From positions 103,385 through 167,384 of the forward strand of contig CAWIIV010000023.1 in the NCBI GenBank assembly GCA_963836205.1: a DNA stretch of 64,000 nucleotides, read 5' to 3'. Origin of the DNA: an uncultured Acidimicrobiia bacterium. GTDB lineage: Bacteria; Actinomycetota; Acidimicrobiia; Acidimicrobiales; AC-14. Position numbers and translations under genes: made by a program. The notes below the pieces were generated by a model, which worked only from the letters and a program-made list of their open reading frames with translations, was not told the origin of the DNA and did no database searches. The first letter of the stretch is position 1, and each line of letters opens with the position of its first letter. Shown here one piece after another: positions 14,315 to 42,699 of the stretch.

Positions 14315-14734
14315 ATGAGCGACATCGACCCGTCCCCGGCGCTCGAGCCCATCCCCCGGGACGAGTGCGTCCGGCTGCTGGCGACGCAGCAGGTAGGCCG
14401 GCTGGCGGTCGTCGACGGCGATCGGCCTCTCATCTTCCCCGTCAACTTCGTCGCCGAGGGCGACCACGTCGTCATCCGCACCGCCGAGGGTTCCAAGCTC
14501 GACTTCTCCCGGCTCCGGCGGGTGGCCTTCGAGGTCGACCACATCGACGCCGAGCAGCGGACCGGATGGAGCGTCGTGGTCCAGGGCATCGGCCACGAGA
14601 TCACCACCGCCCTCGACCCGCTGTCGGAGCGACTTCGTTCGCTCGAGCTGGTGTCGTGGCTGTCCGGCGAGCGCAGCCACATCATCCGCATCGACGCCGA
14701 GCGCGTCACCGGCCGGCGCCTCTCGGCCGGCTAG
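14315..14734 (+). CDS. Pyridoxamine 5'-phosphate oxidase-family protein
   Basis: ECVRLLATQQVGRLAVV...PLIFPVNF...RTAEGSKL...AFEVD...GWSVVVQG...VTGRRL. Confidence 0.88.
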   Translation: MSDIDPSPALEPIPRDECVRLLATQQVGRLAVVDGDRPLIFPVNFVAEGDHVVIRTAEGSKLDFSRLRRVAFEVDHIDAEQRTGWSVVVQGIGHEITTALDPLSERLRSLELVSWLSGERSHIIRIDAERVTGRRLSAG

Positions 14735-15619: not shown

Positions 15620-16375
15620 CTACGAGCGCCCGCTCTCTCCGAGCTGGTCCTGCCCTCCGAAGCCCCGACCGTCGCGGGGTCCGTCGTGACGGACTGATGC
15701 GCCCTGCATCACCGGTTCGGCCACCGGCGGATCGAGCGCGGCCCAGTCGGCATAGACCCGACCGACGACGTCGTCGTGCACCGGATGCTGTTCGACGACG
15801 CTCGAGAAGTCGCCGTGGCAGTAGAGCTCGAATCGCTCGAATCGCGGTCCGCCGGAGAGCTCCTCCGTCTGGCGCACGAAGTAGAGCACGGTGCTGCCGG
15901 CGGCGCCTTCGTGCGGATTGTGGCCGCCACCTTCGAAGATGAGGCCGGCGTCGTGCTGGAGGATCGTGATGAGACGCTCGAACGTCCGCTCGTCCGGTCG
16001 GTCGACCTCGAGGGCCAGATGGTCCTCGAAGCCGAAGGTGCGTTCCGCATCGATGATGTGCTGCTCGAGCGCAGGGGCCGTCTTCGGGAACAGGAACAGC
16101 TCGATGAGGACACCGGTCGCAGGGGTGCGGACCCGGGCCACCGAGACGTCGCACGCTTCGTGGGTCAATCGGTACCGGGCGCACAGCCGGCGACGGACGA
16201 CGACGCTCGGGATCGGCGCGACGACCGCCAGCCCCCGGTCGCTGAACTCGGCGATGGCGTCGTCGAGGCGGGTCGGGAACAGCAGGACCGCCCGGTGGGC
16301 GAACCGGCAGCTCCGGCGCAGCGACGTTCGGGCCGAAGGGCTGATCCCGGGAAGGAGATGCGCGATATCCGTCAC
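15620..16375 (-). CDS. Hypothetical protein
   Basis: Coherent ORF with IELF, EDHLAL, FEGGGHNPHE, TVLYF and RFELY segments; start uncertain. Confidence 0.65.
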   Translation of the reverse strand: MTDIAHLLPGISPSARTSLRRSCRFAHRAVLLFPTRLDDAIAEFSDRGLAVVAPIPSVVVRRRLCARYRLTHEACDVSVARVRTPATGVLIELFLFPKTAPALEQHIIDAERTFGFEDHLALEVDRPDERTFERLITILQHDAGLIFEGGGHNPHEGAAGSTVLYFVRQTEELSGGPRFERFELYCHGDFSSVVEQHPVHDDVVGRVYADWAALDPPVAEPVMQGASVRHDGPRDGRGFGGQDQLGESGRS

Positions 16376-16848
16376 CGCGGCCGCCTCGGCCCGCGCGACG
16401 GTGGCGACAAGCCGGTCGGCATCGTGGGGGTCGAGCGCGCTGAACCCGGACGCGGGAACCCTACCAAGGCTGACTGGATTCTCTACGGTGCACCTCCAGT
16501 AAAACGTCGCGCCAGGCGGCAGTGCATGAAACCCGGCTCCGCGTGTGAAATCGTAACCGCGTCCGGGCGCCTACTTGGCCTGTCTCGGACGAAAGTGTCG
16601 GATGGACGCCCGGTCGCACCCTGAGGCGTCCGGTGTACGGGCCACCAGCTGCCATGCGATTCGTCGGCAGCTGGGAGGTCGGTGCCACGGGCGATGCGCC
16701 CTCGGCCGTGGGCCCGAGCTTGCCGCCTCTCGCCGCTCACACGCGGGCCAGCCGGCACCCCTCGCCCCGCGGTTGGCATTTCGCTCATGGTACATTGACG
16801 TTCTCCAATGACACACGAGGACATGGAGAACATGGAGAACAATACACC

Positions 16849-17109
16849 ATGCCGCCACCTGTGATTCCCTTCAAAGCAGGCATCGTTCTATTGCTCGGTA
16901 TCGTTTCGGCGCCCGCCCTCAAGCCGCTGTTTGACAAGACCGTGAAATCCACGGTTCACGCGGGTATGAAGATGAAAAAGGCGGCGTCCGACGCGACATC
17001 GGGATTGAAGGTTCTTGCCGCGGAGGCGGTCCAAGAAAAGTACGCGGCCGACGCCGAGGCTGATTCTGACGACGCGGAGTCTGATGTAATAGTGGCCGCC
17101 CCGCTCTAG
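16849..17109 (+). CDS. DUF5132-like small membrane protein
   Basis: Hydrophobic N-terminus (LLLGIVSAPALKP), then K-x-x-V-K-x-x-V and LAAEA helix; acidic tail. Confidence 0.65.
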   Translation: MPPPVIPFKAGIVLLLGIVSAPALKPLFDKTVKSTVHAGMKMKKAASDATSGLKVLAAEAVQEKYAADAEADSDDAESDVIVAAPL

Positions 17110-17182
17110 TTGGACGTCTTTACCAAATGTGCGGGGTGGGGCATGAAGCCGTCTTCCTCAGACTGAAGGAGAGTTCGAACAG

Positions 17183-18715
17183 ATGCCAACGAAGGCTCCG
17201 GATCGTCGGATCATTCCTGGCCTAGAGGTGGTGGGGCGCGGTGTCTACTTGCGGCCGAACCAGCCCTACCAGTTGAAGAGCGTGCTCTTCAAGCGGACGG
17301 AGTACCTGCCGTACTTCTCGAAGGAGACGGCGCTCACCTATGGGGTTCCGGCTGGCTATGAAGTCAACGACAGCCCGCCGATGCCTGCCACTCAAGCCCT
17401 GAATCAGTCCATCGTCGAGGAATCATGGGACCGATTCGAGAAGCGTACGACCATGGATGCGAGTCTCGCAGTAAGCAACGCTCCCTTCAGCGTCGACGTC
17501 AACGCCAGCCAGACGGGGCAACTGCGCCAGGAGGAGGAGTCCTACTACGCGATGAGGACTTCCTTCATCCCGTTGTGGACGGTGTATCTCCCCTCCACGG
17601 TCGGCGTCTCCGACGACGACTTCGAAATCGACGTCCCAGTGCCGTTCGACTCGGCCAAACGCCGTCAGTACGCCAAGTTCTTCGATCGGTACGGCACGCA
17701 CTTCATATCGAGGGCCTGGGTCGGAGGGAAGGCAGCCCTCGCCCTCACGATCAGCAAGCAAACGCAGATGACAAAGTCCGAAATTCAGGCCGGCATCAAG
17801 GCGAGCATGGCCGGGCTCGGAAGCAGCAGCGTCAGCACCAGTGACCAGGAGAGCAAGGACAAGCTCCAGACGAACTCTCAGTGCACGGTGTTCGGCAAAG
17901 GCGGCGACGAGTTGAAGCTCGCCGCCCTCAGCACGCTCGACAACGTCCTCTACAACGAATGGCTGGCCACCGTCAAGGATAACCCCCAGGTCATCGAGCT
18001 CGAGGTGCGGGGCATCTGGACCCTCATGCACGACGACGCAAAAGCGCAGGCCCTGATGGAGGCCTACAAGGAGGAAACGGTCAGCCCGCCGCTGCGAGTG
18101 GTGTTCAACCTCGACGGCCACGTCCATTTCTTCGAGGACTCGTGCTATTACACCTACGACATCGAGAAGAGAGTCACGTCGGCACCCAACAAGATCAGGG
18201 ATCGGTGGCCCGAGCTCTTCAAGGTCGGCTTCGAGCGGGTCGATGCCGCCTTTCTGGGAAAATACCTCACGTCACCGGAAGGTGAAGATCTCAGTCGAAA
18301 GCTCTTCCTCTTCAATCGCGACAAATACATCCGATGGGATATCGACAACGACACCATCGACCCTGGGTATCCCCGCCCGATCGCCGTCGGCTGGCCAGGC
18401 GTGGATTTCGAGCGGATCGATGCCACTCTCAACCTCACCCCCGAATCGATCTACTTCTTCTGCGGCAACAAGTACATCCGTTTCAACTCGTTGAAGCACC
18501 ACGCCGACGAGGGCTATTCGGAGTTGATCAGCCGGCGCTGGACCGGGGTCACCTTCGACCGCATCGACTCGGCCATGTACTGGGGCAATGGCAAGTGCTA
18601 CTTCTTCAGTGGCAGTCAGTACATCCGCTACGACACCGTGATGTGGCGAGCTGATCCGGGATATCCGAAGGCAATCCTCGGACACTATGTCGAGGATTGG
18701 AAGTTCTTCGAATGA
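17183..18715 (+). CDS. MAC/perforin (MACPF) domain protein with C-terminal hemopexin repeats
   Basis: MACPF signature FFDRYGTHFISRAWVGG; repeats xDAA..YFF.G..YIR.D...DPGYP; RBS AAGGAG. Confidence 0.9.
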   Translation: MPTKAPDRRIIPGLEVVGRGVYLRPNQPYQLKSVLFKRTEYLPYFSKETALTYGVPAGYEVNDSPPMPATQALNQSIVEESWDRFEKRTTMDASLAVSNAPFSVDVNASQTGQLRQEEESYYAMRTSFIPLWTVYLPSTVGVSDDDFEIDVPVPFDSAKRRQYAKFFDRYGTHFISRAWVGGKAALALTISKQTQMTKSEIQAGIKASMAGLGSSSVSTSDQESKDKLQTNSQCTVFGKGGDELKLAALSTLDNVLYNEWLATVKDNPQVIELEVRGIWTLMHDDAKAQALMEAYKEETVSPPLRVVFNLDGHVHFFEDSCYYTYDIEKRVTSAPNKIRDRWPELFKVGFERVDAAFLGKYLTSPEGEDLSRKLFLFNRDKYIRWDIDNDTIDPGYPRPIAVGWPGVDFERIDATLNLTPESIYFFCGNKYIRFNSLKHHADEGYSELISRRWTGVTFDRIDSAMYWGNGKCYFFSGSQYIRYDTVMWRADPGYPKAILGHYVEDWKFFE

Positions 18716-28617: not shown

Positions 28618-29294
28618 GTCCGTCCCACCTCGACACAGCCGTCGAAGTCGTAACCGAACAACTCCACGTCGGCGGGGAAGTTGTCGGCGACCAGTCGCTT
28701 CGTGCGTTCGTTGTAATAGGAGCGGTAATCCGCGTGGGGGGTGGCGTTGAGGTGGGGCAGGGACCCGTCGATCTTGAGCGTGTCGCAGACTTGCCGAAAA
28801 TCCTGGTCCAGCGTCTCGTACCGACCGACGAAATCGACGAGCAGCTCATTCTTCGAGTCGGCGAGGATCTCGCACTGCTGCTTGGGCGTGCCCATGGGAT
28901 ACGGATTCGGTGTCTGGATGACCCACTCCAGGTAGGGCTCGAAACCGCCCAGCTGCTTCACCGCCTCGTGCGTGGACGACGTGTCTTTTCTCAGAATGAA
29001 CTGATACATGGAAACCTGCCAATCCCACGGGTTGCGAACGAAGCCGAACTTGAAGAAGCTGTCGAACAGGTCGGAAGGCAACTCCTTCTTGGCGTCGCGC
29101 GCCTTGGCATGCAGCAGGAGAGACTCCCATACCTGGTACATCGGGTTGGGTTGGCCGTCCTTGGTGCGGGGTGGTCGCCGGATCTTGAACTTCTCGGGCT
29201 CCTCCGCGTAGGGCTCCAGCACGTGGCGGATGCTCAGCCCGGCTGTTTTCGAGACGTGGAAGAAGATGAACTGACGGCTAGGCGAAATCAGCAT
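28614..29294 (-). CDS. Sulfotransferase (family 2-like)
   Basis: FFHVSKTAGLSI (5'-PSB), FVRNPWDWQVSMY (3'-PB), VGRYETL, FGYDF. Confidence 0.88.
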   Translation of the reverse strand: MLISPSRQFIFFHVSKTAGLSIRHVLEPYAEEPEKFKIRRPPRTKDGQPNPMYQVWESLLLHAKARDAKKELPSDLFDSFFKFGFVRNPWDWQVSMYQFILRKDTSSTHEAVKQLGGFEPYLEWVIQTPNPYPMGTPKQQCEILADSKNELLVDFVGRYETLDQDFRQVCDTLKIDGSLPHLNATPHADYRSYYNERTKRLVADNFPADVELFGYDFDGCVEVGRT

Positions 29295-29297
29295 GGC

Positions 29298-30797: not shown

Positions 30798-32056
30798 GGC
30801 GCGGCGCTGACGGGTTCGGGGTGGTCGACCGGATCGACCGGAGGGGGCGGGAAATACCCGACCCGCTGCCAATGGGCGATGTACTTGCCCATCAGCGACG
30901 GCTCGGCGGGCGGGCAGACGATGTCGGTGCCGGCCAATCCCGCCTGCGTGTGGCTCGTGTCCATCGGCGGGCGCGGATAGAGCAGGTAATGCTGCGCCTG
31001 CAGGACCATCAGCAGGCCCAGGTAGAAAGGCTTGTCGTCGGACTGCGAAGCCCGCAACCTGACCTCTTGCCGCCACGCAGGATAGGAAAGCTCCTCCAAG
31101 CCGTAGCCGAAGGAACGGACCGTGGCCATGAGCTCCTGCCAGGGCATGGCCCGGGGCGTCAGGAGGTGGAACGCCTGCCCAGGGGAGCCCTCCTGGCGGG
31201 AGAGGTGGACGATGGCCCGGCTGATGTAGTCGACGGGCGCCAACGTGACGTCGACGTCGAGCGCTGGACAGGAGCCCATCTGCACGCAGGCCTTCAAGAC
31301 CAGCGGCAGGATGTCGTGCATCTCGTTCATCTTGCCGGTTTGGCTGTGGCCCGTGACCCGCACGCAGCGATAGATCGAGGCTGGCAGTCCCCGCTCCTGC
31401 GCCGACCGCACCATGCGCTCGGCGACCCACTTGCTCTGGGCGTAGCCGCCTTTGAGGGTGGGGTCGAGGGCGGGGATGGTGTCTTCGTTGAGCGAGTCGA
31501 CTCCCACATGGGCGCCGGTGAAGAGGAGGGCGAGCGTCGAAAGGTATTGCACGGACTTCGTCGTGCCGATACTGGCGAGACGCAGGATCTCCTCGGTGCC
31601 GGTGACATTGGTGGCCTTCAACCGGCCATACGGATACAGCGCGTTGGTGGACCCGGCGCTGTGGTAGATCACATCGATCTGGCCGGCCAGGCTGTCGAAC
31701 GCTTCCTCGCTCAGACCGAGGCGGGGCTGGGTGAGGTCGCCGACGACCGGGTGGATCCGGTCGGCGTACTCCTCCCGCCAAAGCTCATAGCTCTGGAGGT
31801 GGTCGGCCAATCGCAGTCGAGCGGCGTCGTGATGGTCGGCCCGAATGAGGCAGAAGACGTCGGCCCCCGTCGTCCGCAGCAGCTCTTCCAGCAGGAACGC
31901 GCCGACGAACCCGGTGGCGCCGGTGAGGAACACCCCTTGTGGTCCCGTCGTGGGGGCGCCGGTGGATGGCAGAGCGTCGTAAGTGATCGTGGGGTCGAGG
32001 AGCGCCTCTGCCTCGAGGTCAAGCATGCTCGTCCAGGGCGCGGTGGTCGGTCTCAT
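30794..32056 (-). CDS. Stand-alone thioester reductase (R) domain protein
   Basis: VFLTGATGFVG, GDLTQPRLGL, YHSAG, NVTGT, GYAQSKWVAE, PVDY. Confidence 0.92.
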   Translation of the reverse strand: MRPTTAPWTSMLDLEAEALLDPTITYDALPSTGAPTTGPQGVFLTGATGFVGAFLLEELLRTTGADVFCLIRADHHDAARLRLADHLQSYELWREEYADRIHPVVGDLTQPRLGLSEEAFDSLAGQIDVIYHSAGSTNALYPYGRLKATNVTGTEEILRLASIGTTKSVQYLSTLALLFTGAHVGVDSLNEDTIPALDPTLKGGYAQSKWVAERMVRSAQERGLPASIYRCVRVTGHSQTGKMNEMHDILPLVLKACVQMGSCPALDVDVTLAPVDYISRAIVHLSRQEGSPGQAFHLLTPRAMPWQELMATVRSFGYGLEELSYPAWRQEVRLRASQSDDKPFYLGLLMVLQAQHYLLYPRPPMDTSHTQAGLAGTDIVCPPAEPSLMGKYIAHWQRVGYFPPPPVDPVDHPEPVSAAP

Positions 32057-32068
32057 CGGGCCCCACCC

Positions 32069-32323
32069 TCACCCGCTCGAGAGCCGGCCGGCGATGAAAT
32101 CGGCGAGGAAGCGAATGGTGGAGAAGGTTTCCATGTTGAGGTCTTCCTCCTCGAAGGTGAACGAAAAGCGTTCCTCGATCATGCTGATGAGGCTGACCAC
32201 GACGATCGAATCGAGGCCCAGGTCCTCGACGATCGATGCGCCGTCGTGAAGCTGTTCGGACGTCAGATTGGGATTGAGCTCAAGGATGAGGCTCTTGAGT
32301 TGTTCGATGACCGGCTCCACCAT
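32069..32323 (-). CDS. Acyl carrier protein
   Basis: EDLGLDSI phosphopantetheine motif, 84 aa acidic. Confidence 0.9.
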   Translation of the reverse strand: MVEPVIEQLKSLILELNPNLTSEQLHDGASIVEDLGLDSIVVVSLISMIEERFSFTFEEEDLNMETFSTIRFLADFIAGRLSSG

Positions 32324-33020
32324 GTGCGGTTCTCCCACGCTCAATCTCGGGCGACATTCCTGGGCAATGCTGTGCGCGACACTCCGCGTCGACCTACCGG
32401 CTATGGAGCTACGACGCGGAAGACAGTCTGTCCCGCTCAGAGCGCTACTCATCCACCATTTCGACGTGCGATGCGACTCCGATCGACGACTCGACGGTCC
32501 CTCGCCGGGGTGTCCTCGGCCGGTGACGCGGGTCGCGTAGCAGGCAGCGCATCGCTCCTCCCCGCCAAGGGGTCGTGTCACCAGTCGGGTCCAGAATACC
32601 ATCACGGTTTGGCGGTCAGCACCGCTCGATACCGACCGGGAGGAAGGTGTCGAACGCACTGCCAAAGTACACCCACGGTGGGGGATTCGAGCCCGATGCG
32701 TAGCTCGCCCGCAGGTTGTCCAGGCATCCCGCCGGACTCTCGACCCATCTGTCGCGTGTTCGCACCCCTCCGGCCGCGGTCGGTGCCGGACTGCGGGTCA
32801 ACGGCACTTTCGAGGCCGGGGGGGTAGAGGCAGCCGGCCGATGACGGTTACCATCACGGTGTCGGATTGCGTGCCGGCCGGTTTGGCCGCGGGATGGGTC
32901 GCCGGCACGTGGTCCAGTGGCGTCCACCGGTGTGCCGGATGGGCGCCTCCCCAAGAGTTGGACGACCGACATTCGATCGTATGGGAGTTGTAACACCAGA
33001 ACCTCGGAGGCAGGACGCTT

Positions 33021-34607
33021 ATGGAATCCCTCAATATTGGTGTCGTAGGGTCCGGCATGTCCGGGCTGGTCGCGATCAAAGAGCTCCTCGACGAAGGCCA
33101 TCGCGTCACCTGCTTCGAGCGGGCTCCGACGGAGGGCGGCAACTTCAACTATCCGGTAGGGGCCGCCTACGACTCGATGGATCTCACGGTGTCGCAGTAC
33201 CATATGGCGTTCTCCTGTTTTCCGCCGCCATTCGGCGACAAACGCCGCTTCTGGAGTCGGGAAGAATACGCCAAGTACTTGCACGACTTTGCCAACAACT
33301 TCGGGCTCTTCAAGCACATCAAGTTCAACACCGAAGTCTTGAACATTCGGGGCGACGCCGGCAACACCCAGTTCCACGTCACCACCAAGGACAAGGAAAC
33401 GGGCGCGGTCACCGACACCGTCTTCGACGCGGTGGCCATCTGCTCCGGAGCCCATGCCACCCACATCCCGCAACTCCCCCAGTTCGAGGGTTCCGAGACC
33501 TTTGCCGGCACGATCGAGCATTCGGTGCACTACCGCAGCCCGGAGCCCTACCGGGGCAAGAACGTCGTCTGCGTGGGGTTCGGCGAAACGGCTGCTGACG
33601 TCACCTGCCAGATCGCCGAGGTCGCGGCCTCCTGTTGGGCCACCTTCCGCCGCTATCCGGCAGTGATCAAGCGCTGGTACGGGGAACACACCCACGACGC
33701 CTACGCCACGCGCATTCATGGCTATCTGCCCCGTTTCGTGCTCAACCGGATGTTCGTGCAGGACGCGGAGCGAACGCTGGCCGCGCCGCCGGAGGAGACC
33801 GATCCCGGGGATCGGCTGCTCGCGGAATGGACGGTCAAGGGTGGCACCCCCGCCCATCAACCACTGGAGAAGAACGACAACTTCCTCGCCGCCGTGTTCG
33901 AGGGCAAATTGCAGATCAAGCCGGTGGGGATCGAGCGTCTCGACGGCGACAGCGTCGTCTTCACCGATGGCAGCCGGGTCAAGGCCGACGTGCTGATGTG
34001 CTGCACCGGCTACGACGAGGGGAGGCCGCCGACGCTGCTCGAGGGCTACGACGTTCCCAACGTCAGGCAGCTCTACAAGCACGTCTTCGATCCCGACCTC
34101 GGGCCGCGCGTGGCCTTCATCGGGTGGGCTCGGCCTGCGCAAGGCGGCATTCCTGCATGCTCCGAGATGCAGAGTCGCTATTTCGCCCTTCTCTGCAGCG
34201 GGAAGCGGACGCTGCCGGGGAAGACCGAACTGCTGGAGTTGATCGCGCGGGATCGCGACTTCGAGGAGCGGTCGTATTACGCCCGGAAGTACCAGGGGAC
34301 GATCGTGAGCTACACGCCCTACATGGATGGCGTCGCCGAGCTCATCGACTGCCGTCCCCGACTGCGGGACTATCTCTTCAATCCACGGATGTTCTATCAC
34401 CTCATTTGTGGGGCAAACATTCCCACCGCCTATCGACTACGCGGCCCCCACGCCACTCCGGAAGTCGCCGAACGTGTCCTGTTGAGCCTGCCGATCGCGC
34501 ACACCGTGCCCGAGCTGGCGACGCTCAGCTACCTGCACGTCCTGTACCGACTCGGCGTCCTGAAGGAGCCGGAAGAGGCCCGCACCTACGAGGACGCGAC
34601 CGTCTGA
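33021..34607 (+). CDS. Flavin-containing monooxygenase (FMO-like)
   Basis: GSGMSGL, FAGTIEHSVHY (FMO motif), GFGETAAD, CTGY; RBS GGAGG. Confidence 0.92.
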   Translation: MESLNIGVVGSGMSGLVAIKELLDEGHRVTCFERAPTEGGNFNYPVGAAYDSMDLTVSQYHMAFSCFPPPFGDKRRFWSREEYAKYLHDFANNFGLFKHIKFNTEVLNIRGDAGNTQFHVTTKDKETGAVTDTVFDAVAICSGAHATHIPQLPQFEGSETFAGTIEHSVHYRSPEPYRGKNVVCVGFGETAADVTCQIAEVAASCWATFRRYPAVIKRWYGEHTHDAYATRIHGYLPRFVLNRMFVQDAERTLAAPPEETDPGDRLLAEWTVKGGTPAHQPLEKNDNFLAAVFEGKLQIKPVGIERLDGDSVVFTDGSRVKADVLMCCTGYDEGRPPTLLEGYDVPNVRQLYKHVFDPDLGPRVAFIGWARPAQGGIPACSEMQSRYFALLCSGKRTLPGKTELLELIARDRDFEERSYYARKYQGTIVSYTPYMDGVAELIDCRPRLRDYLFNPRMFYHLICGANIPTAYRLRGPHATPEVAERVLLSLPIAHTVPELATLSYLHVLYRLGVLKEPEEARTYEDATV

Positions 34608-34690
34608 GTCGCCGGGGAATCGGTCTGAGGACCTCTGGCCCGCACCGGTATCGCGCCCGACCCGCGGCTGCCCGCGGCCGCGATGCCGTC

Positions 34691-37132
34691 TCATTTGGTG
34701 GCGGAGCGAACCTGGTTTCCGTTGCTTCCGGAGCTCGAACCGGTCGGCTGACGTTCGTCACGCATCGGCGCACCGTTCTGCGGAGACGATGACTCGCCGA
34801 CGCTCGCCGGGCGGGCGGCGTCACCGCCGTTTCCTGATCCCAACCGCTCATCGTCGGAGGCCTCGGATTCGTCAGGCGACGGCGGGACCTGTGGTTCGAT
34901 GTCGGCGTCGGCGTCGGCGTCGGCGTCGAGTGCCGGCCCGATCTCGGCCCGGGCGACCGGCTGCGACGGCGGCTGGAGGGTGTGGGCGTCGCCCGGGGTG
35001 CGGTGGTGCCACAGCGGGAGGTGGGCGATTCCCAGGCCGGCGACGAGCCCAGCCGTCCACATGACGGTGCCGCCGACGATCCCGACGACCCCGAGCATGG
35101 CTCCGGCGATGACGATGACGCCCTGCCCCACGGCGACGGCGAAGCCAGCCCTCATGTTGCTGTTGAACTCGTCCCCCAGCTCGAACATGAACGGCAGCAG
35201 GCGCAGGCCCTGGCCCATCAACACGATTTGGGCCGAGTCGGTCGCCGCCGTCGATGCCCCTCGGAGCGAGACTGAGACGTTCGCTTTCTTGAGCGAGATG
35301 GAGTCGTTGATCCCGTCGCCGACGAAGCACACGGAGTGCCCCTCCGCCTGCAGCTCGGCGACGAGCGTCGCCTTCTGCTCGGGCAGGGTGTTGGCGAAAT
35401 ACCGGGTGATCCCCAACTCCTCCGCCATCCTTCGGGTGGGCTCCTCCTGGTCACCGGAGATGATGCAGATGTCGAGGTTCCGCCTCCGCAGCGCCCGCAC
35501 GATGTCGACGACCTCTGCCCGCAGGCTGGGCTCGAGCTCGATGGCGCCGACCAGCTGATCGTCGACCGCCACCATGACCAGGGCGTTGCCGCCTTCCTGG
35601 ACCGCCTTGACGACCTCCTCGATGGAGCCGGGAACGGAGATGTCCTCCATCTCCATGTAGCGCCCGCTTCCGACGCGGATCAGGCGGCCGTCGAGGCGCA
35701 CCCGGAGGCCGAAGCCGACCTCGTAGTGGGCGTCGTCGACCGACGGCACCGACAGGCCTCGATCGCTGGCCGAGTCCAGAATGGCCCGGGCGATGGGGTG
35801 CGTCTGCCGGTGCTCCGCGGCCGCGGCGTAGGCCAACACCGTGTCCTCGTCCAGGTCGGCGCAGATGTGGACCTGGGCGATCTGCGGCTGCTCCATGGTC
35901 AATGTCCCCGTCTTGTCGAAGACGACGAGGTCGACGTCGGACAGGAGCTCCAGCGACCGGCCGTCCTTGACCAGGATCCCGTGGTTGGCCGCCACGTTGA
36001 GGAAGTTGAGCATCGATATCGGCGCGGTGATCTTGATGTTCAGACCGACCGACGACCCGAGAATGGCGACCGAGAAACGGTACCCGGAGAGGGGAAGCGC
36101 GATCAGGGCCAAGGCCATGGTTGGGGGCACCGACCGGTCGGCCACCTGCTGGCCCTTGGAGACGATGCTGGCCTGGTAGGACGCGGTTTCCTTCAGCATG
36201 TTGCCGATTTGGGCGACCATCGTCGCCTCACCGGTCTGCTCGACGCGGACGAACACCTTGCCGCCCACCATCATGGTGGAGGTCAGCACCTTGTCGCCTT
36301 CGCCCTTCTCCACCGGCTGGGATTCGCCGGTCAGGGCGTGTTGGTCGACCGTCGCCACCCCGTCGACGATGACGCCGTCGACCGGGATCACCTGCCCGGC
36401 CTGGATGACCACGATGTCGCCGGCCTCGACATTTTCGATCGGGACCTCGACCTCGACCTCGCCGGCCAGGAGCCAGACGGTGCGCGGTTGCTCGCCGAAG
36501 ACCGCGATGAGGGTGCTCTGCGAGCGATCCTGGGTGATCAGCACGAGCTTCTCGCTCAGGAACCACACGAGCATGCCGAACGTCCCGGGGAGGAAGTAGC
36601 CGCCCATGAACGCGCCGATGACGTACACCGATCCCATGACCCGCATGTCGAGCTTCCGCTCGTCGACAAGGGACTTGTAGGCCCTCCGGAAGAGTCGCAG
36701 GGCGCAGTACCCGGAGGAACCGAGCGTCACGATCAGCGCCGCCGGGTAGACCAGACCGACCGCCGCCGAACCCATGCCCACCAGGGCGGCACCGATGTAG
36801 CGGTTGACGTTCTGCTCGTACTCGCTGACCACCAGTTCTCCGGTGGTGAGCTCGGTCACGTGCTCGCGTCGGGTTCGGCTGAGGATCGGGTCGACCTTCT
36901 CCGCCATGAAGCGCTGGAACTGGGTGTCGAGCGTCGTCTTGGAGGGCTCGGACTCGGACTCGGACTCGGACTCGGGATCCGCCTCCTCGCTCTCCGCCGA
37001 CGCCTCGTGCATCTCGAGGTAGGCCTCCCGGACGAGCGTCTTGAGCTCCTCTTGGAGTTTGCCGGGATGGTCGCGGACCCATTGCCTGGCCGCGGCAACG
37101 GCGGTCCCGCCGGCAGCCAGGATCAGCAGCAT
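34691..37132 (-). CDS. P1B-type (heavy-metal-like) P-type ATPase lacking CPx motif
   Basis: TGES, DKTGTLT, THPIA, SGD, GDGIND; the TM segment before DKTGT reads GSSVGLNIKITAP. Confidence 0.9.
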   Translation of the reverse strand: MLLILAAGGTAVAAARQWVRDHPGKLQEELKTLVREAYLEMHEASAESEEADPESESESESEPSKTTLDTQFQRFMAEKVDPILSRTRREHVTELTTGELVVSEYEQNVNRYIGAALVGMGSAAVGLVYPAALIVTLGSSGYCALRLFRRAYKSLVDERKLDMRVMGSVYVIGAFMGGYFLPGTFGMLVWFLSEKLVLITQDRSQSTLIAVFGEQPRTVWLLAGEVEVEVPIENVEAGDIVVIQAGQVIPVDGVIVDGVATVDQHALTGESQPVEKGEGDKVLTSTMMVGGKVFVRVEQTGEATMVAQIGNMLKETASYQASIVSKGQQVADRSVPPTMALALIALPLSGYRFSVAILGSSVGLNIKITAPISMLNFLNVAANHGILVKDGRSLELLSDVDLVVFDKTGTLTMEQPQIAQVHICADLDEDTVLAYAAAAEHRQTHPIARAILDSASDRGLSVPSVDDAHYEVGFGLRVRLDGRLIRVGSGRYMEMEDISVPGSIEEVVKAVQEGGNALVMVAVDDQLVGAIELEPSLRAEVVDIVRALRRRNLDICIISGDQEEPTRRMAEELGITRYFANTLPEQKATLVAELQAEGHSVCFVGDGINDSISLKKANVSVSLRGASTAATDSAQIVLMGQGLRLLPFMFELGDEFNSNMRAGFAVAVGQGVIVIAGAMLGVVGIVGGTVMWTAGLVAGLGIAHLPLWHHRTPGDAHTLQPPSQPVARAEIGPALDADADADADIEPQVPPSPDESEASDDERLGSGNGGDAARPASVGESSSPQNGAPMRDERQPTGSSSGSNGNQVRSATK

Positions 37133-37591
37133 CCGTTCCTCCCTACCCGGCCCGCTCGGCCAGGACTGCTAAGCAACATCTTCCCGCATCGCCACCGAGG
37201 TCGCGACCCGTTGTGGAGCGACGCCCGTCTTGGCGGAGCGCCGCCGAGGGCTCGTGACCGCCAGGATCGGGCCGCGGCAAGCCGGAAGCCCCCGCGAAGT
37301 GCTCAGTCTGCCTCAAGTCGATCTCTTCAGCGCACGCGCTTCCCAACCGGTCTGGACATTTGATCGTCATGGAACCGACCGTGCGCAGGCATCCCGACGA
37401 CCGGCCGACGGGCTGGCGGGCTGTGTTCGGAGACCAAAGAGCTGAACGTGGTCTGGCGCGACGCCGCGATTTCGGCGGACGTCAGATTTGCACCAGCACC
37501 GCACACACCGTTCTCGAGCAAGCTCGGGTGCCAACGCCACCGCTCGACTAGCGTCCTGCACTTCAGCAAGGTCCTGAGCGAGGAGGCCGAG

Positions 37592-39481
37592 ATGAACCCA
37601 CGGACGGTGCGGGAACGATTTCGATACCGGTTCGACAACGTTATGTCCAAGCGAGGGTTCGCGCTCATCCCCCTGTGGATGGGTTTCGTGTTCGGCCTGG
37701 GGGTCATCATTGCCCTCTTCCTGTCAATCGTCGACCAACAGCCGTCGACCCTCAAGGGCACCCTGAGCCAGATGTGGGCCCGTGGGCTGGGCGTGTTCTT
37801 CATCCAGACGGGCGACGGCAACATCGGGATCGAAGTACTGACCCTTCTGTACGGCCTGATCGTGCTCTTCGTCAGCCCGGTGATGGCCGGCATCGTCATC
37901 GTCATGGCCATGAAGAGGCTCACCGCGTTGGTGAGCGGCCGGTCGGTAGTGCTCGAAAAGGGCCACACGGTGATCCTCGGCTGGTCGGAGCAGGTCTACG
38001 CGGTGATCGCCGGGCTGGTGAAGGCGAACAAGAGTCGAGGAAAGACGACGATCGCCGTCCTTGCCACCGAAAATCAGCTCGTCATGGAGGACCTCATCAA
38101 ACAGAGGGTCGGCGACACCGGCTCGACCCGCATCGTCTGCCGCACCGGAAACCCGATCGACACCAACGACATCAAGGTCGTCAATCTTGACGAGGCCCGA
38201 TCGATCATCGCGCTCAATGCCGAGGGTCCGGGCGCGGACAACCTGGTCATCCGGACGCTGTTGGCGGTGACGAACAGCGCCGATCGCTCGAAGTCTCCGT
38301 ACCAGGTGGTCGCGAGCGTGAGCGACAGCCGGAATCACCCCGCGGCCCAGATCGCGGGCGGGCCTGAGACCGCCGTCGTCAACGCCGACGACATCACGGC
38401 CAAGCTGGTCGTGCTGACCGCCCGCCAATCGGGTCTGTCTTCGGTCTACACGGAGCTCCTCAACTACGACGGCGACGAGGTCTACATCGTCAAGGAGCCG
38501 GCGCTGGCGGGGAAGACCTTCGGTGAGGCGCTCCTCGCCTATGACACTTCCGCGGTCATGGGCCTCCAGGCGGCCGACGGGACCGTGAGGCTCAAGCCGC
38601 CCATGGCGACGATGATCGCCCAGACCGACAAGATCATCGCCATCTCGGCCGACGACAGTTCCGTACGGGTGGGGGGCGCGGCACCCGCCATCGTCGAGCA
38701 GGCCATCGCTCCCGTGACCCAGCGGCCGGCTACCTCCGCCAAGACGCTTCTCCTCGGCTGGAATCGGCGGGGCAGGATGATCCTCCAGACCCTGGACTCC
38801 TCCGTCGGCCCCGAGTCGACCGTGCGCGTGGTGGCCGGCAGTGAGCACGAACCGGCCATCGGCGGGTTGATCGGTGGCACCACCTGGACGAACATCACGG
38901 TCACCTACGCCGCGGGTGACACGACCAGCCGGGAGACACTCGAAGGCCTGGAGGTCGGCACGCACGACCACGTCATCGTGCTGTCGCCGGACACCATGGA
39001 TTTCCAGGAGGCCGACTCCGAGACGCTCGTGACGCTGCTGCACCTGCGCGACATGCACGAGAAGCACGGTGAGCCCGGTCGGCATTACTCGATCGTCAGC
39101 GAGATGCTCGACGACCGGAACCGGAGGCTCGGACAGCTGACCAAAGCAGACGACTTCATCGTCAGCTCGGAGCTCATCGCCCTGCTGATCACGCAGTTGT
39201 CGGAGAACCGCAACGTCGGAGGGGTTTTCGCCGATCTCTTCGACCCCCAAGGGGCGGAGATCTACCTCAAGCCGGCCGAGGACTATGTAGCCCTCGGGCA
39301 GCAGCTCGACTTCTACACCGTGATCGAGGCGGCCCGCCGACGCGAAGAAGTCGCGATCGGTTTCCGGGCGGCCGAGCAGAGCGGCAAGGCGCCGGGATTC
39401 GGAGTCGTCCTCAATCCCAACAAGAAGTCCAAGGTGACCTTCAAGGCCGGCGACCGGGTGATCGTCCTCGCCGACAACTGA
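37592..39481 (+). CDS. CASTOR/POLLUX-like ion channel with RCK domains
   Basis: RFRYRFDN, GRSVVLEKGHTVILGWS, RQSGLS.VY.ELL, TLVTLLHLR, DDFIVS, GAEIYLKP. Confidence 0.85.
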   Translation: MNPRTVRERFRYRFDNVMSKRGFALIPLWMGFVFGLGVIIALFLSIVDQQPSTLKGTLSQMWARGLGVFFIQTGDGNIGIEVLTLLYGLIVLFVSPVMAGIVIVMAMKRLTALVSGRSVVLEKGHTVILGWSEQVYAVIAGLVKANKSRGKTTIAVLATENQLVMEDLIKQRVGDTGSTRIVCRTGNPIDTNDIKVVNLDEARSIIALNAEGPGADNLVIRTLLAVTNSADRSKSPYQVVASVSDSRNHPAAQIAGGPETAVVNADDITAKLVVLTARQSGLSSVYTELLNYDGDEVYIVKEPALAGKTFGEALLAYDTSAVMGLQAADGTVRLKPPMATMIAQTDKIIAISADDSSVRVGGAAPAIVEQAIAPVTQRPATSAKTLLLGWNRRGRMILQTLDSSVGPESTVRVVAGSEHEPAIGGLIGGTTWTNITVTYAAGDTTSRETLEGLEVGTHDHVIVLSPDTMDFQEADSETLVTLLHLRDMHEKHGEPGRHYSIVSEMLDDRNRRLGQLTKADDFIVSSELIALLITQLSENRNVGGVFADLFDPQGAEIYLKPAEDYVALGQQLDFYTVIEAARRREEVAIGFRAAEQSGKAPGFGVVLNPNKKSKVTFKAGDRVIVLADN

Positions 39482-40123
39482 TTCACCCCGGGGCGGTTCA
39501 CCGCGGGCAGTGGTCGGACCCGCGCTTACAGATGTCACGGCGCTACGGGCGGCGACGACGCCGATCCCCCGGACCAGACGATCCGGACCGCCGGAAGTCA
39601 CTGGACGTCACAGCTCGGCCGGACGTCCCTGGGCAGCTTCGGAGCGCGATGGCCGCCTCGCCACGGCACGTCGTGACAACCGCGAGCCGCTTGACAGCCG
39701 GGCGTCCGAGGGGATCAACTGAACGGTGCAACCGTTCGCTGGGGATCCTCGTGGTGCGTTCCTGCACGGAAAGGTAGGTGTCTCCTGGGCGGTCGATCGG
39801 CTCCAGGCGGGACGCCTTCTACCGCATGTGCGCACCGGGGACGAGAGGTGACGCGGATTCAGTACCGCAGGTGGGCTGTGGCGACGACTTTTCAGAGCCT
39901 GCGTCACTCCATACTTGGCAAAGCTTGGACCACCGATTCAAGCCTGGATGCGGAGGCGCTGATTCAGTTCGCCTCGGCGTACGGAACGCGCGGAGGCGCC
40001 AACGTCCGCACGGACCGCCGAATCCCTGAACTGAGTTCAGGGTACGGTCGGTGCCTGATACGCTAAGGCTGAAGAGCAAGACGATATCTATTTCATACCC
40101 CGAGACATGGAGAGGATATAACT

Positions 40124-40330
40124 ATGGTCGGCACTTCCCTCCTGGTGAAGCCGGTGGTTGTGTACTTGGCTGGGCTTATTACCGGTCCCCTGCTCATTCC
40201 GGTCGTCAAAGGCTCGGTCAAGGGAACGGTAAAGGCAGGTTTGCACGTGAAGAAGCTCGTCGATGACGCGGCCGCAGAAGTCACCACGGAAAAGGCAGTC
40301 AAAGAGCCGCGCGTGGCGGTCCGCACCTAG
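40124..40330 (+). CDS. DUF5132-like small membrane protein
   Basis: YLAGLITGPLLIPVVKGSVKGTVKAGLHVKK; RBS GAGAGGA. Confidence 0.65.
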   Translation: MVGTSLLVKPVVVYLAGLITGPLLIPVVKGSVKGTVKAGLHVKKLVDDAAAEVTTEKAVKEPRVAVRT

Positions 40331-40857
40331 TTCCACCCCGCGTGTCGTCCCGAATTGGGACGGACCGCCAGCTTGTCCCCCTCTGCGGAGGGCTGTCCCC
40401 GAGGCGGGGACGGTTCGCCGGTGGCTTGACAACTGCGCCCATACCTGACGAGTCGCTTTCGAGCGGCTCTGTCGGCGCGTTCTACGGACCCGCTGGGCGC
40501 GGTGCGGGCTCCGAGCCCATCGTGGTCAGTTCCGTGTCGATCAAGCTGCGGCGACAGCGCCACCACCGGTGCGGCGAGATCCGGGGGGCGCAAGGGGCTA
40601 CAGCGGCGACACTGACGCACCCCGGAGATCCGTCGGTGTCCCATCGAGCGCGGCCATTCCGCTCGGTCCTGGTGGTGGAAGCGCGAACCCGTCGAGCGCG
40701 GCGGGCCGGCGTCACGTCAGAGGAAGAACCGGCGCTCCGCCCGCCCGTAGCCGAAGAACGTGGCCATTGAACTGTGCACAATGCTGTCGGCGACTGCGCG
40801 CATGATTGCGCTCGTCAATTGAACGGCACCGATGCCCGCCGCAGTCAGGAAATGGCG

Positions 40858-41193
40858 CTATTTCTTGGCACTGACGATGACGGTGGCCGGCTTCGGCGCC
40901 TCTGCGCTGGTGACCGGCTTGGGCGGCTCGGCGCTGGCCTTAACCGTCGTCTTGGGCACTTCGACGGTGGCCTTCGGCGCGGCCACGGTCGCCTTGGGCA
41001 GGGCCTTTTCCTTGGCGCCCACCTCCGCACGTGATTCGGCGGCGATGCCATGAAGTTCCGCAGCCGCCTCATGGGAAAGGTTCTTTATCCCCATTCCGAT
41101 TTTTGCGGTTCCTTTGACGGCACCTCTCGCCACCGGCCTAATCACGGCTCGGGTTGCGGCACCAGCTGCGTAAACGACAATCAGGCCAAGCAT
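40858..41193 (-). CDS. DUF5132/PacL-like small membrane protein
   Basis: YAAGAATRAVIRPVARGAVKGTAKIG...ELHGIAAESRAE; K/P/A-rich tail. Confidence 0.65.
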   Translation of the reverse strand: MLGLIVVYAAGAATRAVIRPVARGAVKGTAKIGMGIKNLSHEAAAELHGIAAESRAEVGAKEKALPKATVAAPKATVEVPKTTVKASAEPPKPVTSAEAPKPATVIVSAKK

Positions 41194-41373
41194 ACGTTCT
41201 TCTCCCACCTTCATCGAGATATACGCCCTAGCATTGTACCACCACGCCCAGATGCCGAACCCTCGGGCCGGCCCTCGGTCCGCTCCGACGACGGACGTTC
41301 GACGAGCGCGAGACCGGCGTCCGTTCGTCCCCCCCGGGGCTCCTCGTCGGTGGGACGAACCGCGTTCGGCCCC

Positions 41374-42699
41374 CTACGCGTCCGTGTAGAGGGGATCCTT
41401 GGTGACGAACTCGAAGGGTCGCTCGAACGTGTCGAGGTCGCGATGCGTGCGCAACCACACCGCGTCGGGGTTGGCCCAGAAGTCCCCTGAGAGCATCTGG
41501 CCGAAGTACGGGGCCCAGTACCGGGGCAGCCCGGGCGCGGCGGGCAGCCAGTCCCACAGCCTGGCGATGCTGAGGTTCGACCGTTCGTAGAAGGAATACA
41601 TGAGCCGGAAGTAGGTGTCGTACCCCGTCTTGACCAGGTTCTCGAAGGCGGTGATCTCCACCTCCTCGTCAGAACCGTCGAGCAGTCGGTGGATCGCCTC
41701 TGCCGCTTTGACCCCGCTTATCGAGGACAGGAAGACGCCGGCCGAGAACAACGGGTCGACGAAGCATCCGGCATCGCCGATCATGAACCACCCCGGCCCG
41801 GCCAGGTGATTGGAGTGGTAGCAGAAGTCGGATTGCACCCTCACCTCGTCATACCGGTTCGTCGCCCCTTCCAACGCCTCGGCGATGATCGGTGCCCGCC
41901 GAAGGTGATCCTCGAAGACCTTGTCGCGATCCATGCCCTTGAGCTTCGACGCGTGGGTGACCGTGCCGACGCTGAAGCTCTGGGGCTCGATCGGGATGCA
42001 CCAGACCCACCCCTCGTCGTGCGAGCTCACCACCTGGTAGCCGTCGTGGGCTCGGCTGGCGCTTTCCACACCGTCGAAATGGCGGAACAGGGCGATGTTG
42101 TTGAGACGAGAATTGAGTTTCCGCAGCCCGAACTTGCGGGCCAGGAGGCCGGATCGCCCACTGGCATCGACCACCCATTTGGCGGTGGCGGAGCAGGGAC
42201 GGCCGTCACAGGTGTAAGAGAGTCCGACGATCCGGTCCTCGTCCATCTCGAACTCGGTCACTTCGGCGTTCTGAATGACGTGTACACCAGCGCCGACCGC
42301 CAGGTCGGTGAGGAGCCCGTCGAGCTCGGCCCGCTCCACGTTGTAGGCGTAGTTTCGCCGATTGGGCTGCGGTTGGGTGAAGTCGAAGACGAAGTTCTTG
42401 TCGACCTGCCGGTCGTCGATCTGGACGCCAGGCTTGTAGACGAAGGGGCCGGCCGCCACCGCGTCGACGATTCCCTCCTGGGCCCAGAGCTCGATCAGGT
42501 ATGGGATCAGCGACTCGCCGATGTGGAACCGGCCCCGGTCCTCCTTGTCGACGAGCAGGACCGAGTGGCCGCGCGCGCCGAGGTGGTGGGCACAGACGGC
42601 GCCCGCCGGGCCCGCTCCGATGACGATGACGTCGAAATGCTCGCCCGCGGCTTCGGGCGTCGTTCGGGCTGGACCAGGGCTCGCAGGTTGCGAGGTCAT
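41374..42699 (-). CDS. Flavin-dependent halogenase (carrier-protein-acting type)
   Basis: GAGPAG, RFHIGESL, DASGR, GWVWCIP (WxWxIP), GDAGCFVDPLFSAGV. Confidence 0.85.
   Translation of the reverse strand: MTSQPASPGPARTTPEAAGEHFDVIVIGAGPAGAVCAHHLGARGHSVLLVDKEDRGRFHIGESLIPYLIELWAQEGIVDAVAAGPFVYKPGVQIDDRQVDKNFVFDFTQPQPNRRNYAYNVERAELDGLLTDLAVGAGVHVIQNAEVTEFEMDEDRIVGLSYTCDGRPCSATAKWVVDASGRSGLLARKFGLRKLNSRLNNIALFRHFDGVESASRAHDGYQVVSSHDEGWVWCIPIEPQSFSVGTVTHASKLKGMDRDKVFEDHLRRAPIIAEALEGATNRYDEVRVQSDFCYHSNHLAGPGWFMIGDAGCFVDPLFSAGVFLSSISGVKAAEAIHRLLDGSDEEVEITAFENLVKTGYDTYFRLMYSFYERSNLSIARLWDWLPAAPGLPRYWAPYFGQMLSGDFWANPDAVWLRTHRDLDTFERPFEFVTKDPLYTDA

Follow-up and report, generated by a model that had tools for sequence, protein, structure and literature searches.

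A predicted agd-like aryl-sulfate pathway and a MACPF-hemopexin/P-type ATPase gene cassette share a low-GC island in an uncultured Acidimicrobiia bacterium

The window analyzed in this study is a 64,000-nucleotide (nt) stretch of contig CAWIIV010000023.1 (positions 103,385 to 167,384 of the forward strand) from the assembly GCA_963836205.1 of an uncultured Acidimicrobiia bacterium (4.05 Mb, completeness 88.6%; G000 hereafter). Its positions 15620–42699 hold a 27-kb block in which the genes of a predicted aryl-sulfate pathway, akin to the aeruginoguanidine/microguanidine (agd) non-ribosomal peptide synthetase (NRPS) cluster of Microcystis that was reportedly described by Pancrace et al. in 2019, lie among genes for a MACPF-hemopexin protein, a P-type ATPase and several small membrane proteins, here called the accessory cassette. 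Genes were chosen by third-position GC and then scanned against Pfam and NCBIfam (E-values for Pfam families are given in brackets); these searches and tblastn recovered in the block all the gene types that an earlier reading made from the letters alone (the sequence-only reading) had listed, including a separate methyltransferase and three DUF5132-like genes. The GC content ranges between 0.63 and 0.69 over 16–46 kb vs 0.72–0.76 in the left flank, with the drop at approximately 16 kb. We consider it likely that the biosynthetic genes and the cassette are functionally linked, because their co-location is kept through rearrangement and across phyla, and we lean, if only by a little, toward seeing the 27-kb block as a horizontally mobile unit of two parts, an agd-type pathway and a membrane cassette acting as proposed below.

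The core of the pathway is an operon on the minus strand that runs from 32.3 to 21.4 kb. It opens with an acyl carrier protein (ACP; 32069–32326, or to 32665; PP-binding 1.4e-08) bearing the serine motif LGLDS, and continues with a stand-alone thioester reductase (30794–32056; NAD_binding_4 2.5e-66; TIGR01746 316 bits vs a cut-off of 213), in which the motifs GxTGxxG and YxxxK are present, and with a stand-alone AMP-forming ligase, predicted to be an aryl/acyl-ACP ligase (29298–30790; AMP-binding 1.7e-32, plus AMP-binding_C), to which the acyl/aryl-CoA ligase models of NCBIfam gave sub-threshold matches only. The next gene encodes a sulfotransferase of the type that uses 3'-phosphoadenosine-5'-phosphosulfate (PAPS; 28614–29294; Sulfotransfer_2 3.5e-13), whose stop is overlapped by 4 nt by the start of a 206-amino-acid (aa), S-adenosylmethionine (SAM)-dependent methyltransferase (27997–28617; Methyltransf_11 5.5e-18). 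Another frame between the sulfotransferase and the NRPS (28076–28849) was discarded in favor of 27997–28617, its product being rich in arginine and proline and devoid of a Pfam match. The NRPS itself (24765–28079, with a likely start at the ATG at 27938) consists of an adenylation (A) domain (AMP-binding 1.2e-80), an embedded N-methyltransferase (N-MT) domain (Methyltransf_12 3.1e-18; motif LEIGCGTG) and a thiolation (T) domain (PP-binding 2.4e-13; motif GGNSL). It is followed by a free-standing condensation (C) protein with a TubC-type N-terminal docking domain (23096–24748; Condensation 2.5e-61, TubC_N 2.3e-18). In spite of its strong Condensation match, this protein reads HNLMGEDG in place of the active-site motif HHxxxDG, and its orthologs, which read HS or HI, are likewise without the second histidine, whereas the C proteins of other agd-like loci retain HH. 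The last gene of the operon encodes a type I sulfatase (21356–23038; Sulfatase 2.3e-43), a predicted lipoprotein that, because of its lipobox (LLAGC) and of the formylglycine motif CxPxR (CSPSR, at residue 91), should act outside the cytoplasm.

Two more pathway genes lie outside the operon. A flavin-containing monooxygenase (FMO; 33021–34607, plus strand; FMO-like 6.3e-57) diverges from it, and a short flavin-dependent halogenase of the CmlS/phenol-pyrrole type (41374–42699, minus strand; Trp_halogenase 5e-30; 219 bits with the CmlS model, under its cut-off) closes the block. The signatures of the flavin-dependent halogenase family, GxGxxG, WxWxIP and FxxPxFSxG, read GAGPAG at residue 28, WVWCIP at 231 and FVDPLFSAG at 313. 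Orthologs of the monooxygenase and of the halogenase, 80% and 85% identical respectively, are found in G001 (= G005), a genome of the same genus.

Around and between the pathway genes are those for the membrane and toxin proteins. A leaderless MACPF protein of 510 aa with a four-blade hemopexin domain (17183–18715, plus strand; MACPF 2.6e-21, Hemopexin 1.2e-25) has its stop overlapped by the gene for a small DUF697 membrane protein (18697–19197, plus; 7.2e-13; hydrophobic segments). Immediately 5' of MACPF is the first DUF5132-like gene (16846–17109, plus), which encodes a small membrane protein recognized by tblastn with the other two window copies and the G001 copies as queries (E 9e-08 to 4e-07); the same position is likewise filled in loci L223 and L224. 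Downstream of DUF697 are two bestrophin-like (DUF4239) genes on the plus strand, the first a short protein or fragment (19387–19959; 8.6e-08, C-terminal part of the profile only) with a 69% identical ortholog in G001, and the second a membrane protein of 400 aa with four hydrophobic segments (20043–21245; 4.1e-41). For the interval 17183–21245, a look-up of sequencing data sets listed no RNA set, the entries being DNA sets with a small share. Beyond the monooxygenase are the ATPase, described below, and a CASTOR/POLLUX-like RCK channel (37448–39481, plus; Castor_Poll_mid 6.6e-30, with weak RCK/TrkA_N matches), to which G001 has a 65% ortholog and a 32% paralog. The second DUF5132-like protein (40124–40330, plus) shares 66% identity with a G001 copy and 44% with the third, and had no Pfam match at 0.01; copies one and two are recognized by similarity only, and the third (40858–41214, minus) matches Pfam DUF5132 itself (5.3e-06, 26.8 bits vs a cut-off of 25). 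Near these genes, a stretch of about 115 nt without a convincing open reading frame (ORF; 39689–39804) is 79% identical to a stretch of G001 (L001, 8163–8273) and adjoins a DUF5132-like gene in both genomes; no Rfam family reached its gathering score in the window, this stretch included. The left end of the block common to G001 is marked by a hypothetical protein (15620–16375, minus; 251 aa from the first start, with the frame open to 16570), whose 62% identical ortholog in G001 adjoins the MACPF block. Neither Pfam nor PADLOC gave a match for it, and the ESM Atlas clusters closest to it, all unnamed, hold actinobacterial proteins some 245 aa long.

The MACPF-hemopexin protein was analyzed further. 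The MACPF/perforin signature, Y/W-G-T/S-H-F/Y-x6-G-G (YGTH(F/Y)x6GG), reads YGTHFISRAWVGG in the window protein, and across 28 aligned sequences H173, G181 and G182 are invariant and V180 nearly so. None of these 28 family members has a signal peptide, and the window protein lacks a hydrophobic N-terminus. Its AlphaFold2 model (mean predicted confidence, pLDDT, 77.2) is made of two parts, with low confidence at residues 90–115. In Foldseek searches the N-terminal part matched Mpf2Ba1 (8b6v), GNIP1Aa (6fbm), Plu-MACPF (2qp2) and perforin (3nsj; E 2e-13 to 1e-10 for these four, with TM-scores of no more than 0.35–0.37 over the whole chain), as well as complement proteins. The C-terminal part, where Pfam finds three hemopexin stretches and the model four blades of strands (residues 306–484), matched the hemopexin domains of vitronectin and matrix metalloproteinases (TMt 0.77–0.83). 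The protein is a putative pore-former. Complex prediction of MACPF with DUF697 scored 0.36, vs 0.00 for the best of three controls, with a partner pLDDT of at least 62 and a contact agreement of at least 22%. Among 80 solved complexes 58 scored this high, as did 2 of 110 mismatched pairs, but scores of 0.60 or lower include only 7 of those 80 complexes and both mismatches that passed, so that the model gives weak support for binding. Among the titles and abstracts that mention DUF697, none was concerned with its function.

The ATPase (34691–37132, minus; E1-E2_ATPase 2.6e-33, Hydrolase 2e-26) passes the cut-off of the P1B model TIGR01525 (403 vs 346 bits) and has all the catalytic motifs (TGES, DKTGT and GDGIND). 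At the position of the CPC motif of Archaeoglobus fulgidus CopA, however, it reads VGL (alignment to 3J09), and no HMA domain was matched in Pfam at E 0.01, which justifies its earlier description as atypical. An N-terminal HMA domain is common, though not universal, in P1B ATPases. The CPx motif was missing from all 13 ATPase sequences that we aligned, and the catalytic motifs are intact in 12 (TGES/TGEA, DKTGT, and GDGxxD in sequences that extend to it).

The complete set of 20 gene types is also found in G001 (contig 4, 94.9–130.5 kb), with 62–85% aa identity but rearranged. The halogenase of G001 is next to the sulfatase, its MACPF block is on the far side of the CASTOR genes, and a second ATPase, the second CASTOR paralog and a Na+/H+ exchanger are added. 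At the DNA level the island is 70–79% identical between the two genomes, vs 81–89% identity to congeners for the core flank of the window, whose counterpart on the same G005 contig is some 320 kb distant. These differences in gene order, chromosomal place and identity fit movement or acquisition of the block as one unit. Of 61 genomes searched in the order (the window's included), three have MACPF, all from this genus. The single strong C-domain hit in the 4 Mb of G000 is the one within this block, and another genome, G066, also gave one strong C-domain hit.

The window holds a TrwC relaxase and, as fragments only, an integrase (~59.4–60.0 kb), and the island extends past the window end. No tRNA gene was found in a scan of the window, and a direct-repeat search returned short low-identity families only, none convincing as att sites. 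Several other features lie to the right of the block, where what appear to be mobile remnants include a DNA methylase (46955–48346), four ORFs without Pfam matches, the TrwC relaxase/helicase (54416–57214), helix-turn-helix regulators and the two integrase fragments (~59447–59982), which are in different frames. Three overlapping minus-strand ORFs of 291, 230 and 522 aa (43101–46170), with eukaryote-like RCC1 and FG-GAP repeats that are not common to G001, may represent one frameshifted gene or an assembly error. Short 9-nt tandem repeats are found at 50652–50737, inside an ORF without a Pfam match, and at 63868–63915. The core flank, outside the island, contains a tandem array (13804–14133) in which a 20-nt unit, shortened to about 19 nt in the final copies, is repeated some 16 times; the array ends within the start of a pyridoxamine-phosphate-oxidase-like gene (14093–14734).

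A scan of one genome per species, in which an alignment of four family members served as query, returned 43 MACPF loci from Acidimicrobiia, other Actinomycetota, Chloroflexota, Methylococcales, Chromatiaceae, picocyanobacteria, Desulfobacterales and Myxococcota, with homologues 44–84% identical over their full length. Full-length matches were obtained at 41 loci, which span at least five phyla, and at 36 of them tblastn places DUF697 directly 3' of MACPF. De novo clustering of the neighbors at 40 loci, window included, yielded the ATPase at 12, thiotemplate genes at 10, ABC transporters at 8, SPFH proteins at 5, a metallophosphatase/5'-nucleotidase at 4, and two further families, c5 and c6, at 10 and 7; DUF697 is often present in multiple copies. 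When only loci with at least 9 kb on both sides are considered (n=15), thiotemplate genes are found at five and the ATPase at seven. The synthetases beside MACPF are unrelated to each other, as they include bimodular NRPSs, an NRPS with a thioesterase domain, polyketide synthase (PKS) modules, and an AMP ligase with a chorismate-lyase-like gene. A metagenome scan returned 70 MACPF loci, 64 of which do not duplicate genome loci; in the 22 non-duplicates of at least 12 kb, DUF697 is present at 18, thiotemplate (NRPS/PKS) genes at 11 and the ATPase at 9.

Two of the loci, metagenome contigs of other lineages, are directly comparable to the window. In L258 (GC 59%) a run on one strand encodes the P-type ATPase (55% identical to that of the window), MACPF (67%), DUF697 (45%), a halogenase-like protein (22%), ACP (63%), thioester reductase (68%), AMP ligase (58%), sulfotransferase (67%), methyltransferase (69%) and the A-MT-T NRPS (72%), with 8 nt between DUF697 and the halogenase-like gene; its DNA is 91–95% identical to two short contigs (L021 and L063) of a metagenome-assembled genome (MAG) of a gammaproteobacterium, but the contiguity stated here is that of L258. 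In L228 (GC 67%) the order is MACPF, DUF697, P-type ATPase (67%), DUF5132-like, ACP, thioester reductase, AMP ligase, methyltransferase and NRPS. Pathway and cassette are therefore contiguous in four arrangements, those of the window, G001, L258 and L228. Membrane/toxin and biosynthetic genes, whose joint occurrence elsewhere the sequence-only reading depended upon, are in fact found together in the latter three, and the membrane/toxin genes also lie beside other NRPS/PKS clusters of several phyla. The tightest links are those of the pathway with the ATPase and of DUF697 with MACPF, and the two halves are bridged by DUF697 and the ATPase.

Other recurrent arrangements were seen around MACPF. 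In picocyanobacteria and Methylococcales (L032, L034, L039–L042, L051, L024, L025) a six-gene run reads DUF697, c5, DUF697, MACPF, DUF697, c6, with c6 missing from L024 and L025; c5 (~244 aa) and c6 (~173 aa) have no Pfam or PADLOC match. In the Myxococcota-type loci L058, L256, L259, L261 and L287, a divergent DUF6072 pair lies between a PKS/NRPS gene and the ATPase, and occupies the place that DUF5132-like genes take in high-GC lineages. Local hhalign comparisons among c5, c6, DUF6072, the DUF5132-like proteins, the hypothetical protein at 15620, k11 and the bestrophin-like proteins gave probabilities below 8% in all cases.

The biosynthetic half has relatives of its own. In a scan of species genomes the window sulfotransferase had 249 relatives, and the best 80 (41–72% identical) come from Microcystis, Dolichospermum, Aphanizomenon, Trichodesmium, Prochlorothrix, Thiothrix, Beggiatoa-like bacteria, Thioploca, Thiomargarita, Methylococcaceae, Chloroflexota and Desulfobacterales. 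Once the G001 locus is set aside from these best 80 of 249, the neighbors at the remaining 79 loci include a chorismate-pyruvate-lyase-like protein (37/79), an AMP ligase (31/79), a Sulfotransfer_3 protein (31/79), a HemN-like radical SAM enzyme (29/79), an ACP (21/79), a Sulfotransfer_1 protein (21/79), the CPx-less ATPase (20/79, within 10 kb), a thioester reductase (19/79) and a thiamine pyrophosphate (TPP) enzyme (19/79). The operon type of the window (ACP, thioester reductase, sulfotransferase, methyltransferase, NRPS) is seen in the Methylococcaceae loci L113, L115, L116 and L117. In L115, L116 and L117 the NRPS is followed by a C protein, at which the L116 contig ends; the AMP ligase and the CPx-less ATPase lie beside the pathway in L113, L115 and L117, and DUF697 lies upstream of it in L116 and L117. 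One such genome has a single C domain in 3.6 Mb. In the Beggiatoa-like loci L085, L101 and L112, a 595-aa paralog of a class II aminoacyl-tRNA synthetase with an editing domain directly precedes the sulfotransferase and the CPx-less ATPase, and may be a resistance copy or a building-block enzyme.

A published instance of the cassette probably exists. In the published table of the miuraenamide A cluster (miu) of 'Paraliomyxa miuraensis' (PMC10051162), orf14–18 separate miuB from miuC; their products are a mechanosensitive channel, a hemopexin-repeat protein of 545 aa, a P-type ATPase of the heavy-metal kind and two small hypothetical proteins. The genes that follow miuC encode a metallophosphatase/5'-nucleotidase, a 'GTPase' of 164 aa whose best hit is in Methylumidiphilus, a third small protein, another ATPase and the brominase. 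The authors termed such interruptions of core genes rare, and reported that in Myxococcus xanthus production was normal upon deletion of orf14–16 and higher upon deletion of orf19–23 (PMC10051162). According to their table, the best hit of the hemopexin ORF is WP_269038991 (PMC10051162), which fits the L058 MACPF by accession order, as the L058 ATPase, two genes before it, is WP_269038989; this ORF hence very likely belongs to the MACPF family of the window. The 164-aa 'GTPase' is probably a DUF697 protein. Apart from these ORFs, left unexplained in PMC10051162, our literature searches found no account of MACPF, DUF697 and the ATPase accompanying thiotemplate clusters.

As for the product, a halogenated and sulfated compound containing N-methyl-alanine had been proposed from the sequence, and each of these features is backed by a domain or motif. 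The ten specificity residues of the A domain were read by hand from the translation with PheA numbering and spell what we take to be an alanine code, so that N-methyl-alanine is a reasonable call and not a computed one. In the pathway that the domains suggest, the AMP ligase would load an aryl acid, probably of the 4-hydroxybenzoate type, onto the ACP, the halogenase would chlorinate the aryl unit, and the stand-alone reductase would free it as an aldehyde or alcohol. The A-(N-MT)-T protein would generate an N-methyl-alanyl thioester that the docked, free-standing C protein would join to the aryl unit. Methyltransferase and FMO would tailor the product. Lastly, the sulfotransferase would cap a hydroxyl to give an anionic pro-form, to be unmasked extracellularly by the lipoprotein sulfatase. 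Sulfation followed by desulfation is a general masking strategy among natural products, and we regard the chances that the sulfate is a removable mask here as evenly balanced.

It is from the tightness of the pathway–ATPase and DUF697–MACPF links that we favor a scheme with a masked sulfate ester, handling by the pump and small proteins, unmasking by the sulfatase and an optional MACPF arm. The CPx-less ATPase and the DUF697 and DUF5132 proteins would handle the charged product after its synthesis, through either export or self-protection; that the ATPase is the actual pump for the product is a tentative suggestion. The leaderless MACPF-hemopexin protein, tied to DUF697, would be a protein arm directed at foreign, probably eukaryotic, membranes, and its joint action with the metabolite on target cells seems to us a doubtful, if possible, extension. 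The recurrence of the partnership in unrelated bacteria does suggest a protein and a small molecule working as one weapon. Storage or delivery of the metabolite, and its use against grazers, as put forward in the sequence-only reading, are conjecture. Bolder, and unlikely, is the idea that MACPF-hemopexin, docked on DUF697 and serviced by the pump without a metal site, is a portable accessory, recruited by diverse NRPS/PKS clusters in at least five phyla for entry of toxins into what would probably be eukaryotic cells. The pore might admit an otherwise impermeant sulfated compound, or the hemopexin propeller might carry the compound, much as apoproteins carry enediyne chromophores. As a corollary, the CPx-less P1B ATPases would pump organic anions or the pro-toxin instead of metals.

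We acknowledge that several observations weigh against the scheme that we favor. The absence of the second histidine from the C protein makes the joining step uncertain. The window yielded no chorismate lyase, aminotransferase or thioesterase gene, so that both the substrate of the AMP ligase, an aryl acid in the scheme, and the mode of release are guesswork. The MACPF protein has no export signal, and its route to a target is not explained by the scheme. The CASTOR-like and bestrophin-like genes were found with the cassette in this genus only, and are thus the weaker members of it. Thiotemplate genes, moreover, lie near just 3 of at least 9 further ATPase relatives (at least 38% identity, among the matches listed), in a scan that used generic P-type motifs and gives no family-wide context frequencies. 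Many of the loci are MAGs, metagenome sequences or short contigs, kin among them are not independent, and the counts carry no correction for phylogeny.

Some of the findings speak directly for a different explanation, by which the pathway and the MACPF, ATPase and channel genes are separate passengers of the same mobile low-GC islands and share no function. MACPF and DUF697 stand alone in the congener G003 (MACPF 63% identical; other window genes not found within ~40 kb), and 10 of the 15 MACPF loci with full flanks have no thiotemplate gene within 10 kb. With the window protein as query, MACPF was found in none of the five Methylococcaceae genomes searched that carry the homologous pathway and ATPase, and it is thus, on present sequences, optional for the pathway family. 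The island also holds the relaxase, the DNA methylase and the integrase fragments, and the deletions in miu did not harm production (PMC10051162). The latter show that the cassette was unneeded for production in a foreign host, so that its role would have to come after synthesis, and they fit a post-synthetic role and no role at all equally. Independent passengers, however, would hardly be expected to recur together in four gene orders and at least three lineages, to form the single-strand run of L258 with only 8 nt between DUF697 and the halogenase-like gene, or to place the ATPase inside an operon of the same pathway in another phylum; nor is it easily reconciled with them that the only strong C-domain hit in the 4 Mb of G000 falls in the block. 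Overall, we consider shared transport of unrelated cargo improbable.

Two other explanations keep the cassette together but change its purpose. The absence of signal peptides from all 28 aligned MACPF members, the near-obligate pairing with a small membrane protein for which complex prediction lends weak binding support, the frequent SPFH, channel and pump neighbors, and the island context would all suit a cell-autonomous system. In such a system the leaderless MACPF would act from inside on the producer's own membrane, in regulated lysis, abortive infection or release of contents, with DUF697 as receptor or brake and the ATPase and channels resetting ion gradients. None of ten cassette proteins had a PADLOC match at E 0.01, though, the closest structural matches of MACPF are secreted toxins of eukaryotic targets and immune pore-formers, and hemopexin is typically an extracellular ligand-binding fold. 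The linkage to NRPS and PKS genes would also stay unexplained unless lysis were the release route, and we hold this explanation to be quite improbable. A compartment-based explanation, very improbable in our judgment, has the DUF5132 proteins, the CPx-less pump, the channels and the Na+/H+ exchanger of G001 build or service a membrane compartment loaded with ions, in which the sulfated product or a mineral would be stored, with MACPF remodeling the membrane. Many host taxa of cassette or pathway (cyanobacteria, methanotrophs, purple and large sulfur bacteria) have internal membranes, which we take as a lead only. The block does contain several ion-transport families, and in Microcystis, according to a preprint (10.1101/2024.07.07.602159), the calcyanin marker gene and a Ca2+/H+ exchanger gene are flanked by DUF5132 genes, all of them being co-expressed when carbonates form inside the cell. 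Channels and DUF5132 genes are confined to high-GC lineages, however, and no gene for a compartment shell or scaffold was recognized.

If the two-part unit that we favor is real, it would matter beyond this genus. Natural-product clusters are read as sets of enzymes accompanied by a transporter and a resistance gene; a pore-former and a P-type pump put to new use, traveling with NRPS/PKS clusters across phyla, would add a layer of protein delivery or handling to small-molecule warfare, and would explain the function-unknown ORFs that split the miuraenamide core genes. The cassette would become a new genome-mining marker for clusters aimed at eukaryotes, and a testable role would be gained for DUF697 and DUF5132, as well as for an entire clade of P1B-like ATPases that lack the metal site. 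Aryl-sulfate chemistry of the agd type, so far bound to Microcystis, would in turn extend to Acidimicrobiia, methanotrophs, large sulfur bacteria and Chloroflexota.

Among solved structures, the best matches of the ATPase are the P1B ATPases CopA and ZntA (E 5e-58 to 1e-54), with which it shares the catalytic motifs; it differs from them by lacking both CPx and HMA and by its acidic disordered tails. The MACPF protein is built like Mpf2Ba1, GNIP1Aa and Plu-MACPF (Foldseek E 2e-13, 2.8e-13 and 6e-11), in which an N-terminal MACPF fold precedes a C-terminal binding domain, but unlike in these bacterial toxins that domain is a hemopexin propeller, DUF697 is a near-obligate neighbor, and the gene lies in the context of a biosynthetic cluster. 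With sulfate-masking systems the window shares a cytoplasmic PAPS-type sulfotransferase and an exported sulfatase in one operon, from which the order of the steps would follow only by inference. With miu the likeness lies in the accessory set (channel, hemopexin protein, P-type ATPase, small proteins, 5'-nucleotidase) and in a halogenating flavoenzyme; miu is unlike the window in its large PKS/NRPS for a brominated cyclodepsipeptide, in its MscS-type channel and in having neither sulfotransferase nor sulfatase.

The closest known relative of the pathway half is agd. According to a review, the agd cluster encodes an NRPS and multi-copy AgdS/T together with a sulfatase and several sulfotransferases (PMC12371840). 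Our Microcystis loci, in which a sulfotransferase, a TPP enzyme and another sulfotransferase are followed by 2–4 tandem 270-aa genes, a reductase and an NRPS, appear to be agd by gene content, not by accession match. The sequence-only reading did not recognize the gene set as a described cluster; its core of sulfotransferase, AMP ligase, ACP and reductase does have a described relative, apparently agd. The window Sulfotransfer_2 protein is 58–59% identical to copies in these Microcystis loci; in loci of the family outside Microcystis, AMP ligases are 44–49% and ACPs about 40% identical to those of the window, and these AMP ligases adjoin chorismate-lyase-like genes. A sulfatase, a thioester reductase and an NRPS that N-methylates occur in both systems, and the window combines Sulfotransfer_2 with AMP ligase, ACP and thioester reductase as the family does. 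Unlike agd, the window has no prenyltransferase-like repeats, and tblastn with representatives against it (E 0.01) found none of the other genes that recur in our survey as the core of the family, namely a chorismate-lyase-like gene, a HemN-like radical SAM enzyme, a TPP enzyme and further sulfotransferases. Its A domain reads Ala and not Arg, a halogenase and an FMO are added, and the MACPF/ATPase cassette is joined to the pathway, whereas none lies within 10 kb in the Microcystis loci L090, L092, L096, L098 and L139. Judged by its gene content, the pathway of the window is thus a new, reduced and halogenating member of the agd-like aryl-sulfate family.

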